DNA of 64,000 nt, taken from the NCBI GenBank assembly GCA_018304615.1, contig JAGVVV010000008.1, positions 25,741-89,740 of the forward strand, written 5' to 3'. Shown here piece after piece: positions 18,612-25,251 of the stretch. Made by a program: the position numbers and the translations under genes. The stretch's first letter is position 1; each line of letters opens with the position of its first letter. The DNA comes from Candidatus Aenigmatarchaeota archaeon (GTDB lineage Archaea > Aenigmatarchaeota > Aenigmatarchaeia > CG10238-14 > SCSR01). The notes below the pieces were generated by a model. The model was given only the letters and a program-made list of their open reading frames with translations. It had not been told where the DNA came from and did no database searches.

Positions 18612-19075
18612 AACTGCCATACCACATACCAAAAGATTTGCTAAGCATTTTCTCAAAGACGAAACTTAACGTCCAGCCTGGAGAGTATCTGATTGTCAGA
18701 TTGCCTTTGAAGTATGGGGTCATGCTGAGAGAACTTTCAAAATTCGTGAGAGAACCGTTTTTTAATTATACAGTAGAGCCACAAGAAATAACTCTGGTCG
18801 TTCATGAGAGGGATTGGAGTAATATTGGAAGAGATTTCATTGAGACGCAGATAGAGCACGGTTACAATATTATCACGATGGACGTGACTGTGGATTTAAA
18901 TGTGATAGGTTACCTTGCTGTGATTTCCAGATTGCTCGCTGACGTGGGTGTCCCCATAATGGTTGTTTCAGGCCATAGGACTGATCATATACTTATCAAA
19001 AAATATGATCTGCAGAAAGCTATTTTCGTTTTACAGGATTTGATAAATAGCTGCAAAAATATAGTAATTGTATGA
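18608..19075 (+). CDS. ACT-domain protein
   Basis: LNVIGYLAVISRLLADVGVPIMVVSGHRTDHILIK. Confidence 0.8.
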   Translation: MKLPYHIPKDLLSIFSKTKLNVQPGEYLIVRLPLKYGVMLRELSKFVREPFFNYTVEPQEITLVVHERDWSNIGRDFIETQIEHGYNIITMDVTVDLNVIGYLAVISRLLADVGVPIMVVSGHRTDHILIKKYDLQKAIFVLQDLINSCKNIVIV

Positions 19076-19416
19076 AAAATAATCTGAAAATTCTAATGCC
19101 GACTCTCAGAGAAAAAGAAAGATATGTAGCCTTTCAAGTGATTTCTGAAGATTCAATAACTTATTCGGATTTAGAAGCTGCGATCTGGAACTCGATGATG
19201 GATTTTTTTGGAGAATATGGGACTGCTAAGACTTCGATGTGGATTGTTAAGAATCTGTATGACGAACAAAATCAAATCGGAGTGATAAGATGCAACAACA
19301 AATCGGTCCAAGAAGTGATCACGGGATTGGGACTGATTTCAAGGCTCGGAGATGTAAGAGTAACTATAAAAATTTTATCCGTCTCAGGAACCATTCGCGG
19401 TTTGAAAATAAAGTAA
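19072..19416 (+). CDS. rnp2: Ribonuclease P protein component 2 (Pop5)
   Basis: PTLREKERYVAF, GVIRC, SVSGTIR. Confidence 0.92.
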   Translation: MKNNLKILMPTLREKERYVAFQVISEDSITYSDLEAAIWNSMMDFFGEYGTAKTSMWIVKNLYDEQNQIGVIRCNNKSVQEVITGLGLISRLGDVRVTIKILSVSGTIRGLKIK

Positions 19417-19490
19417 CTAACAAGTGAATACAACTTTCTTAAGTTCTATAAATGATTAAAGTAAAATTACCACATTAATTTCTGATACAA

Positions 19491-20432
19491 ATGAAAGAAA
19501 TATTAACCAATTTAGAAGATGTATCAGGTAAATTCAAAAGTGTACATATAGATAATGGCTTTGTGTTCATAAAAGTCGGAAAGTATACGGCAAAAATCAA
19601 AATTCCTTTTAGAGTTAGCAAAGAACTTGCATCTTTATATGGACATGTTTTAGGCGATGGCCATATTAAAAAAGATGAACAACACTTTCACTATGTAAAC
19701 AAAAATAAGGATTTAATTGAAGAAGTCAAATCAGAAGTCAAAAATATATTTGCCGTTGAGACCATGGAGTATTTTAGAGAAAACAAACAAATCTATGATT
19801 TGAATTTCCCGGTAGTAATTGCAAAACTGCTTGTTTTATTAGGGTTTCCAAAAGGTAGAAAATCAATTCAAATATTGTCAATTCCAGAATGGTTGAAAAA
19901 TGAATCTGTAGATATCAAAGCGGCTTTTATCAGAGCTTTATTTGATGATGAAGCGTGGGTAGAAATAAAACAGGGTGGATTTTGTATCGGCTTTGGCCAA
20001 AACAAAAATGTCAACTTATTGCAATATCACAAAAATTACATTGAAGAAATTAGGAATATTTTGAGTCAATTAGGTGTCAATTCAAGTAAAATTTTTCAAA
20101 AATCGCAAAAAGGAGATTCTATACAACTTGGTTTTAAAATTTTAGGATTACAAAATCTTACTAATTTTAATTCAAAAATAGGATTTCTCTCTGAAAATAA
20201 ACAAAAAAGATTAGAATTCGTCTTGAACAATTTTAAACAGATACAGTTCGGTAAAAAAGAAGCGAAGTTAAAAATATTGGAAAAATTAAACGTACCTATG
20301 AAAAGTAAAGAATTGGCATTTTTGCTTAATAGGGATCAAAAAACTATTTGGAAACATTTACATCAACTGCATAGAAAAAATTTAGTCACTAAAATCGGTA
20401 CTAAAAATAAAGTATTTTGGAAAAGTGTCTAA
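19491..20432 (+). mobile_element. Free-standing two-motif LAGLIDADG homing endonuclease with C-terminal winged HTH
   Basis: LASLYGHVLGDGHI and AFIRALFDDEAWV helices; KSKELAFLLNRDQKTIWKHL; AT-rich; inserted between rnp2 and psmA; no intein splice motifs. Confidence 0.88.
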
Positions 20433-20531
20433 CGCTAAAATTTAAAAGGGCACAAATTTAAACTATTATCAACAAGTTATTACAAGGTGATTCTCAAAGA
20501 ATGAGAAAATTATTTGCATTGGTGATAGGCA

Positions 20532-21336
20532 ATGCCTGAAATGATGCCTGAATATAATCTAGTGGCTAAAGACCACATGATGTTCAAATGGGCTACGACA
20601 GGACAAATTTGCCTAGTTAATAACTAGCAAAGTCCATTTGCTGTATCGTACCCAGTCATAAAGCTGGTATGAGGCAAAATTTAGTCCTGATGGCCGCCTG
20701 TTCCAAGTAGAGTATGCTAAGGAAGCAGTGAAGAAAGGATCGACTTGTTTGGGAATAGTTTTCAAAGATGGAGTATTGCTCGCGACAATCAGACCGTCGA
20801 CTGCACTGATGGTGCCTGAATCTCTGGAGAAGATTTTCCAGATTGACGACCATCTTGGAGCAGTGGCTTCTGGATATCTCGCTGATGCAAGAGTTCTTGC
20901 AAACCAGTCTAGGGTGAAGGCGCAAGTCCACAAAATCACTTATGAAGAGCCAATAGATGTCTGGGGTGCGGCAAAAGTTTTGGGAGACAGGATGCAGATT
21001 TCGACAATTTATGCAGGCTTAAGGCCGTTCGGAGTTTCGTTCTTGATTGGTGGAGTAGATAGAACAGGTCCTCATCTAGTTGAAACAGATCCTTCTGGAA
21101 TGCTTTACGAATGGAAGGCGAATGCTCTCGGAAGAGGAGCTCCAGTAGCAAACAAGATATTCAAGCAGAGATGGAAAGATGGCCTGAGCGAGAAAGAGGC
21201 CGTGGATATTGCTCTAGATGTAATCCAGAAGACTGAAAAAGAGAAAAAGGCAAACGCTATTGACGTTGCTATAATAACAAAAGACCTGAAATTCAGAAAA
21301 TTGAGGGAAGAGGAAATCAAGAAGGCTTTAAAGTGA
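20532..21336 (+). CDS. psmA: Proteasome alpha subunit, intron-split: join(20532..20555,20588..20606,20638..20644,20679..21336), 235 aa
   Basis: Spliced start [39 protein letters not shown] matches the alpha-subunit signature; GGTGAT RBS at 20521-20526; normal rnp2-psmA-SBDS context. Confidence 0.95.
20556..20587 (+). other. psmA intron 1 (32 nt, BHB-type)
   Basis: Central helix GAAT/GTTC, bulges AT^A and AA^A, inner stems ATC/GAT and GTGG/CCAC; outer helix relaxed. Confidence 0.85.
20607..20637 (+). other. psmA intron 2 (31 nt, canonical BHB)
   Basis: Central helix GGAC/GTCC, bulges AA^A and AT^T, inner hairpin TTTG..CTAGTT-AAT-AACTAG..CAAA, outer CA/TG. Confidence 0.92.
20645..20678 (+). 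other. psmA intron 3 (34 nt, BHB-type)
   Basis: Central helix TGCT/GGCA, bulges GT^A and AA^A, inner stem TCGTACC/GGTATGA. Confidence 0.9.
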
Positions 21337-24364: not shown

Positions 24365-24802
24365 TTATCCTGTCTGCCAGCAAGACATCGAATTCTCGCA
24401 AGTTGCTGATACAGGCAATCCTGAGCATGTTCCCAGCACTCTTACGAATGTTGGAAGGGATGATACGTTAACTCTGGCAGTACCAACATCTCCTGGAAGA
24501 AGCGAAGTAGCAGATAATGTGATTGTAGTCATATTGTTTGGAATCAAAGCGCTAATCGCGTTAATAGTTTGCTGACTTGGATTTGAAAATGTGATATTCA
24601 ATGCACCAGCTACCACGCTAGGAGCTTTTACAAGCTCTATTACAAGAGCAGGAGTGCATTTTGCTTGAGCAGCAGATTGATTTGAGACCTGCTGTGTTTG
24701 TGTGTTTGTCAGACCTGTCAGCCAAACAGACATTATTCCTCCTATAGCTACAGTAAAAGCGATCAAGAGTACAATCGCGATCATTGGAGAAATTCCTTTC
24801 AT
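24365..24802 (-). CDS. Archaeal type IV pilin-like protein
   Basis: Class III signal MKG/ISPMIAIVLLIAFTVAIGG. Confidence 0.88.
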   Translation of the reverse strand: MKGISPMIAIVLLIAFTVAIGGIMSVWLTGLTNTQTQQVSNQSAAQAKCTPALVIELVKAPSVVAGALNITFSNPSQQTINAISALIPNNMTTITLSATSLLPGDVGTARVNVSSLPTFVRVLGTCSGLPVSATCENSMSCWQTG

Positions 24803-25251
24803 TAAGTACCCCTCCAACAACTATAAGCTGGCCTGCAAGTGAAAGACACAGGCAAACCAGTACATACACCGCTCACTCTTACAAGTGTGGGTAATGTCGA
24901 ATAATTACCAACTGTTATGAAATATGAAGCACCTGAGCCTAGATTTGGAACGACAGATGCGTTTGTAGTGACTGTTGATCCTGAAACTACAGAAACGTTG
25001 ATGTTAATTATCTGGTTTTGACTGGGATTTGTAACTGTCACATTAATGAGATCTGTAGCAGCGGCTGTGTTGGAATCTACTCTGTCAATCATCAAGGAAG
25101 GTGTGCATTTTACTTGAGAGGAAGATTGATTTGAAACTTGCTGGGTCTGAGTTGTTGTCAGGCCAGTGATCCATATAGAGAGAACTCCTCCGATTGCTAC
25201 TGTAAAAGCAATCAAAAGAATGACTGCAATCATAGGAGAGATTCCTTTCAT
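24802..25251 (-). CDS. Archaeal type IV pilin-like protein (tandem paralog)
   Basis: MKG/ISPMIAVILLIAFTVAIGG; similar to neighbour throughout. Confidence 0.88.
   Translation of the reverse strand: MKGISPMIAVILLIAFTVAIGGVLSIWITGLTTTQTQQVSNQSSSQVKCTPSLMIDRVDSNTAAATDLINVTVTNPSQNQIININVSVVSGSTVTTNASVVPNLGSGASYFITVGNYSTLPTLVRVSGVCTGLPVSFTCRPAYSCWRGT

Follow-up and report, generated by a model that had tools for sequence, protein, structure and literature searches.

Introduction

A free-standing endonuclease acting together with an intron that lacks a reading frame has been described in phages: in the cyanophage psbA gene, the nuclease and a group I intron without an ORF take part in collaborative (trans) homing (Zeng, Bonocora and Shub 2009, as described in PMC3984707). 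As far as that account outlines the system, the archaeal psmA locus reported here is similar in having a free-standing nuclease beside a conserved gene, an ORF-less intron at the proposed target, a patchy distribution and co-conversion. It differs from the phage case in that its introns are BHB introns of 18–37 nt, which are predicted to be spliced by proteins and are not ribozymes. The gene concerned is a housekeeping gene on an archaeal chromosome, the enzyme is of the LAGLIDADG type with cleavage predicted, and four nuclease clades are found in one slot with stacked introns left, all unlike the phage system.

Among archaeal mRNAs, crenarchaeal cbf5 contains a BHB intron of 16–44 bp that is removed by the tRNA-splicing endonuclease (Yokobori 2009, PMC2738675). 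According to the same study, this intron was gained once, descended vertically with losses and is too short to encode a nuclease, and its passages on the intron name no neighbouring nuclease. Another spliced archaeal mRNA is Haloferax HVO_1309, and these two are the only ones named in a passage of a 2023 review (PMC10485636). The mechanism of archaeal intron transposition, including the gain of non-canonical tRNA introns, was called unknown in a 2014 review (PMC4090602), and gain of tRNA introns through an integrating element has been proposed (PMC3293823). Like cbf5 and HVO_1309, as these have been described, psmA has short ORF-less BHB introns in a protein-coding gene; unlike cbf5, it has up to three of them in four site clusters, scattered over the host tree and beside a nuclease.

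Archaeal rRNA BHB introns encode LAGLIDADG enzymes such as I-DmoI and I-Tsp061I, and intein endonucleases include PI-PfuI and the TliVMA intein. The psmA nuclease has the same two-domain fold and acidic motifs as these enzymes, and the psmA introns have the same splicing motif as the rRNA introns. The differences are that the psmA nuclease lies outside the intron, has no Hint domain, ends in a C-terminal winged helix and has a protein gene as its proposed target. WhiA is a transcription factor derived from a LAGLIDADG protein; it no longer has the catalytic residues, and its inheritance is stable. The psmA nuclease is like WhiA (3hyi) in combining a LAGLIDADG core with an HTH, but it keeps the catalytic residues and behaves as a mobile element.

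No description of psmA introns, or of free-standing nucleases paired with BHB introns, was found in the literature covered (mainly main texts of open-access papers). We consider it probable that psmA is a case of collaborative homing with introns predicted to be protein-spliced, in an archaeal chromosomal gene. What the psmA locus contributes is the mapping of four clades to four sites, the replacement between sister hosts and a visible tract.

The nuclease gene between rnp2 and psmA

The window is a stretch of 64,000 nucleotides from the genome of a Candidatus Aenigmatarchaeota archaeon (G000). A genome of the same genus, G001, has neither introns nor nuclease. The features of the nuclease region in the window are as follows.

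19072..19416, + strand: rnp2 (Pop5), Pfam PF01900 (E 1e-20), the conserved gene upstream of the nuclease
19491..20432, + strand: predicted free-standing monomeric two-motif LAGLIDADG endonuclease, 313 aa, intein-type, clade C
19653..19661, + strand: end of LAGLIDADG helix 1 (G55 D56 G57), D56 being the predicted catalytic Asp
19944..19952, + strand: end of LAGLIDADG helix 2 (D152 D153 E154), with a predicted catalytic acidic residue
20253..20426, + strand: C-terminal winged helix-turn-helix, residues about 255–312 (Pfam HTH_5, E 0.001)

The nuclease slot lies between rnp2 and psmA, inside an RNase P/proteasome/exosome operon. The ORF matched Pfam LAGLIDADG_3 (E 2e-10), with a weak HTH_5/TrmB match over residues 259–308. 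Its GC content was 28%, against 37–44% in rpp30, rnp2, psmA and SBDS, and its GC3 was 0.24, against 0.37–0.44. G55, D56, D152 and D153 were invariant in 21 nuclease homologs, and E154 was nearly so. The AlphaFold model (pLDDT 91.5) showed two alpha/beta LAGLIDADG domains followed by helices (255–295) and strands (299–312) with ArsR-type PDB matches. Foldseek matched the model to 7qsu, 2dch (I-Tsp061I), 1dq3 (PI-PfuI), 1vde and I-DmoI with E values of 7e-10 to 1e-5, while WhiA (3hyi) was a poorer match at rank 6. No Hint domain was found in the 313-aa protein.

Judging from dN/dS values of 0.09–0.27 (11 pairs, several of them near saturation), the nucleases are under purifying selection. Broken or remnant copies were also present, in G125 (a remnant), G140 (frameshifted), G144 and G124 (N-terminal remnants), L145 and L150. 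Such decayed copies alongside purifying selection are as in the homing life cycle.

Two loci had an unusual arrangement. In G132 (L095, G132:C7:8500-14400), a second, distant LAGLIDADG gene was found about 3 kb upstream of the first, and in G117 (L097) the nuclease was upstream of rnp2, not downstream.

BHB introns in psmA

The psmA gene of the window is interrupted as follows.

20532..21336, + strand: psmA, proteasome alpha subunit, four exons, 235 aa once joined
20532-20555, 20588-20606, 20638-20644 and 20679-21336, + strand: psmA exons, the third of only 7 nt
20556..20587, + strand: intron 1 (32 nt), at site A, 9 positions from the PEY motif, central helix GAAT/GTTC
20607..20637, + strand: intron 2 (31 nt), at site B, position 28, central helix GGAC/GTCC
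20645..20678, + strand: intron 3 (34 nt), at site C, position 35, central helix TGCT/GGCA

The first insert begins 123 bp past the nuclease stop, and all three are ORF-less. Each of them has a complete 4-bp central helix in a BHB layout, with 3-nt bulges at the exon junctions. When the three inserts were removed, a 235-aa PsmA was obtained whose N-terminus is the same as that read directly in the intron-less G001; when any one of them was retained, translation stopped within 18–37 codons. The initial annotation had described an AT-rich LAGLIDADG-wHTH gene between rnp2 and psmA and three ORF-less introns in psmA about 120 bp from it, and our analysis confirmed both. Folded singly, introns 1, 2 and 3 gave modest z scores (−1.1, −1.6 and −2.6), so that the comparative evidence carries the case for introns.

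This comparison covered 68 inserts of 18–37 nt in 37 psmA loci. They fell into four position clusters, counted from the PEY motif as A (6–9), B (28–29), C (35–37) and D (65). The central helix was complete in 58 of the 68, had three of its four pairs in 9 and two in 1, while 3.8% of the shuffled controls were complete. At position 9, the exon Glu codon and the intron covaried in 20/20 cases: GAAT occurred with (G/A)TTC in 10/10, and GAGT with (G/A)CTC or ACTT in 10/10. G000 encodes EndA (PF01974, E 7e-27) and RtcB (PF01139, E 5e-156), and the inserts are predicted to be removed from the mRNA by these host tRNA-splicing enzymes. A search against Rfam gave no match near threshold and one weak match far below it. 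The window inserts, at 31–34 nt, are not group I self-splicing introns.

The nine residues at site D were identical in 79 of 83 intron-less psmA alleles, and the B/C residues in 63 of 83. Several psmA genes (L006, L011, L014, L015, L026, L100 and others) seem to start at ATT, ATC or ATA after a good RBS.

Co-occurrence of nuclease and introns

Across archaeal genomes, the initial annotation had expected BHB-split genes to co-occur with adjacent LAGLIDADG genes. For psmA this held in the order studied. The region upstream of psmA could be read in 110 of 114 order-level genomes with a psmA match, and 106 of these were informative. Nuclease and intron were both present in 14 genomes, the nuclease only in 0, the intron only in 11, and neither in 81. 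The 14 include the remnant of G125, the frameshifted copy of G140 and the upstream nuclease of G117, while G144, with its N-terminal remnant, was scored as nuclease-less. We dropped G146 (psmA 5′ end off the contig), G136, G119 and the remnant-bearing G124 (too little upstream DNA), six out-of-order genomes and G153–G156. Among the metagenome loci, L143 (a near-duplicate of L142), L149 and L164 (psmA off the contig) and L203–L207 (intron sequences already counted) were also dropped. The 'insertions' that the alignment script gave for G022, G044, G056 and G105 were rejected as ordinary N-terminal variation.

Fisher's test gave p 4e-11 (3e-10 with G117 moved), values that overstate the association because kin are not independent. 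On the psmA-body tree, 8 independent pairs with a difference in the nuclease were found, of which 6.5 showed the same direction of difference in introns and 0 the opposite (median p 0.016, range 0.008–0.125). With the metagenome rows added, the result was 8.5 of 10 independent pairs the same way and 0 opposite (p 0.008). All 11 metagenome loci with a nuclease upstream of psmA carried introns. Where a nuclease or its remnant adjoined psmA and the psmA 5′ end could be read (14 GTDB and 11 metagenome loci), at least one intron was present in 25/25, compared with 11 of the 92 nuclease-less genomes.

Four nuclease clades and four intron sites

The site clusters were defined before the IQ-TREE tree of the adjacent nucleases was made. 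Four clades were obtained, and each had an intron site common to all its members: site A in 4/4 of clade A (support 97/94), site B in 4/4 of clade B (100/100), site C, at 35–37, in 7/7 of clade C (93/91), which includes the window, and site D in 7/7 of clade D (100/100). Site D was found in 1 of 15 carriers of other clades and in 0 of 92 nuclease-less genomes. In 0 of 200,000 label shuffles did the four clades have four distinct shared sites; without L148, G135 and L142 the number was 3 of 200,000. Independent clade-by-site pairs numbered just 3–4, too few for significance.

The clades do not follow the hosts. On the host tree, 14 clade-label changes were counted among 21 carriers. Sister hosts carry different clades, namely G132 (clade C) and G030 (D), and L142 (C) and L148 (D); G138 (B) and L145 (C) are close relatives, and a host of another family, G051, carries clade D. 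At least four nuclease clades appear to target four points within 60 bp.

The site A intron was also present in 15 of 18 carriers of clades other than A, which would also allow clades C and D to be taken for cutters of site A. L142/L143 is the only clade C locus without intron A, and it carries intron C alone, which argues against site-A cutting by clade C, as far as this can be read from the alleles; the tie of clade C to site C leans on this locus. Within the collaborative-homing model, it is fairly likely that the window nuclease targets the insertion point of intron 3. Earlier nucleases probably left the other two introns behind, intron 1 through clade A homing and intron 2 through clade B homing. 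The initial annotation had paired one enzyme with all three introns; of this, intron 3 as a likely partner stands, but introns 1 and 2 seem to be tied to other clades.

Copied tracts between hosts

L148 was 93–96% identical to its sister L142 in rpp30, the psmA body and SBDS (96% downstream of the tract). Between the 3′ end of rnp2 and a point some 10 codons beyond intron D, however, L148 was 93–100% identical in 60-nt bins to L146, whose flanks were only about 75–80% identical to those of L148. This tract of 1.4 kb in L148 contains a clade D nuclease, the leader described below and both intron A and intron D; in the same place, L142 carries a nuclease of clade C together with intron C. The L148 mosaic is read from the sequence of metagenome contigs, and the overall identity of the tract to L146, 97–98% and not 100%, argues against a simple mis-join. 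A tract shared between hosts that are 75–80% identical implies homologous DNA exchange across species.

The clade C loci G132 and G135 gave a similar picture, with 200 of 259 nuclease codons in common, 17 of 26 at the psmA 5′ end and 63 of 139 in the psmA body. In close host pairs (silent identity of the body at least 0.7), the 5′ silent identity was 0.79 in 13 intron-less pairs and 0.29–0.54 in 4 pairs with an intron. The window and G001 showed a weak conversion dip (11/28 vs 89/166, p 0.22).

Read in this way, the contigs indicate that nuclease and introns have moved together in a conversion-like tract. The suggestion that the introns hitchhike with the nuclease is supported by the L146/L148/L142 tract and by the sharing between G132 and G135. 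The further suggestion that stacked introns record successive rounds of conflict fits with sister hosts that have different clades and keep introns of other clades.

The leader ORF and the direct repeat

Upstream of psmA we found a short leader ORF, absent from the initial annotation, and we re-examined the direct repeat given there.

20486-20491, + strand: upstream RBS
20501-20539, + strand: 12-codon leader ORF
20516..20535, + strand: 6-bp hairpin whose loop contains the psmA RBS (20521-20526) and whose 3′ arm contains the psmA AUG
19419..19433, + strand: 13/15 repeat, copy 1, judged a chance match
20471..20485, + strand: 13/15 repeat, copy 2, judged a chance match

The stop of the leader ORF overlaps the first psmA codons. 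Of the 26 loci carrying a site-A intron, 23 had the leader (L031–L044 and L141–L162 are among the carriers), as did 4 of 83 others; a further 11 loci, in which no RBS could be recognised, were kept out of the count. Around the second RBS, a shared block occurred in 15 of the 26 and in 1 of the 83. The fold of the 66-nt leader alone was not significant (z −1.5), and a sigma-70 promoter scan, with a model not suited to archaeal promoters, stayed at the level of shuffles. The leader may have arisen as a scar when site A was first converted, and may have been retained because it would couple the translation of psmA to its own. The leader without a site-A intron was seen in G016, G057, G113 and G114; G113, G114 and G057 read PETM, not PEYM, at site A, possibly an escape allele.

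The 13/15 repeat had been taken as flanking the element. It is present at 19419 and 20471, but it is at chance level and does not belong to the element: dinucleotide shuffling of both flanks matched its score in 102 of 3000 runs, and p was below 0.05 at 1 of 19 nuclease loci tested, that of the window. The empty allele had no single copy of the repeat (best 9/15). A target-site duplication, as would be left by a transposon- or IS-like insertion, was rejected on these three results.

Proposed mechanism

The nuclease gene and the ORF-less BHB inserts of psmA together probably form a two-part (collaborative) homing element. Intron-less psmA would be cleaved by the enzyme at a single intron insertion point or close to it. 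Repair from the donor chromosome would copy the DNA from rnp2 to just past the cut, bringing in both the nuclease and the intron. The intron would break the recognition site and so shield the donor, leaving the peptide unchanged; since the psmA N-terminus is almost invariant, an intron could break a long recognition site there without altering the protein. EndA and RtcB would then remove the intron from the psmA mRNA. A new clade with a new site could invade hosts immune to the old one and take over the intergenic slot, and the older introns would stay behind after such replacement and give rise to stacks. That the enzyme cuts, where it does so, that the intron confers immunity and is spliced, and by what route DNA passes from cell to cell are all inferred.

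Alternative explanations

Intronless homing, which is described in PMC3984707, could account for part of these observations. The nuclease would then cut within the tract, in the rnp2 3′ end or psmA, with donors made immune by silent substitutions and the introns as passengers. A shared tract is expected under this explanation too, and intron carriers show a bias in the silent codons around each site, although most of this bias is accounted for by the helix required by the intron. More distant nuclease relatives adjoin tgt, nre, minD, topA, alaS, radical-SAM and other genes, and among the matches listed there was mostly no BHB match near these intact genes; this indicates that the nuclease family does not need introns. 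However, homing without introns does not predict that 0 of 25 loci would have the nuclease only, nor that each member of four separately derived clades would keep its own site after long divergence. We regard it as unlikely, though it is the strongest of the alternatives.

It is far less probable that nuclease and introns have no functional link, with genomes collecting selfish nucleases and mini-introns for which psmA is a common hotspot. G000 does have 8 LAGLIDADG_3 ORFs and many split tRNAs. An extra tRNA-Leu intron was found in 4 of 5 psmA-intron genomes vs 2 of 21 others (p 0.005), a sign of genome-level intron propensity. This explanation is opposed by the clade-to-site pairing and the shared tract, and by the 9 genomes whose related nuclease lies only elsewhere, 0 of which have psmA introns. 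The rnhB and gatE matches of G000 had no internal stops, and a noisy scan gave no convincing other mRNA intron. That genome-wide BHB scan, the stricter of two, yielded 58 candidates, none convincing by eye (a looser one gave 1122), and it is weak evidence because it misses multi-intron 5′ ends.

Equally improbable is a domesticated WhiA-like regulator of the proteasome/exosome operon with introns as splicing-level control, for which the LAGLIDADG and HTH layout, the rank of WhiA in the fold search, the purifying selection and the regulatory look of the leader ORF and hairpin could speak, but against which stand the retained catalytic acidic residues, the absence of the gene from 92 of 106 genomes (same genus included), its swapping between sister hosts, its decay in the six broken or remnant copies and its deviating GC3.

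Nucleases beside tRNA genes and other candidates

Two further nuclease families represented in G000 are located immediately upstream of tRNA genes that look split, in 7/8 and 9/9 of the loci where a tRNA was seen (15 and 11 loci, by eye). In G000 itself, the free-standing LAGLIDADG genes at G000:C11:15044-15868 (L215) and G000:C12:2709-3431 (L214) run into split tRNA genes, one of them a tRNA-Leu with several introns that ARAGORN missed, the other a tRNA-Cys. The control, tRNA-Leu(TAA) after rpoD (L261–L290), had an intron at the canonical position in 25 of the 26 loci that could be read, irrespective of a nuclease, so that generalising to tRNA introns is not established. The motifs CTGA and ATGA of this intron resemble box D and box C, and it may therefore be an intron-encoded guide RNA. 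At L221 and L224, the tRNA genes beside nucleases have a duplicated 5′ end just upstream, like the psmA double-start scar.

Other candidate intron cases were rejected. The nre gene beside the C10 nuclease of G000 is intact; the broken TFS gene (G000:C19:57761-58170) is frameshifted by a 35-nt stretch repeated exactly in tandem, which may be an assembly artefact; and topA beside L051 is intact, its BHB match being by chance. A tandem pair of archaeal pilin-like genes, whose N-termini are nearly identical, lies on the minus strand at 24365-25251 of the window, inside the exosome/ribosomal protein operon.

Significance

One essential gene carries up to three introns in 25 of 106 genomes, about a quarter of an archaeal order, with a testable mobiliser next to it. 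Gene callers would truncate the PsmA proteins of the intron-bearing genes. The four clades and four sites offer a 4 x 4 cleavage matrix by which collaborative homing outside phages could be tested, and predict target sites for new LAGLIDADG specificities. The tract implies cross-species homologous exchange in uncultured small-genome archaea.

We lean towards a broader proposal, held with less confidence than the reading of psmA itself: that free-standing homing endonucleases spread ORF-less BHB introns through archaeal chromosomes, and that the 60-bp patch of psmA would be the arms race of at least four lineages in one slot, with the leader ORF co-inherited. The same process may explain non-canonical tRNA introns. 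If this is true, each lineage would leave behind a protective mini-intron, turning an essential archaeal gene into a multi-exon one.
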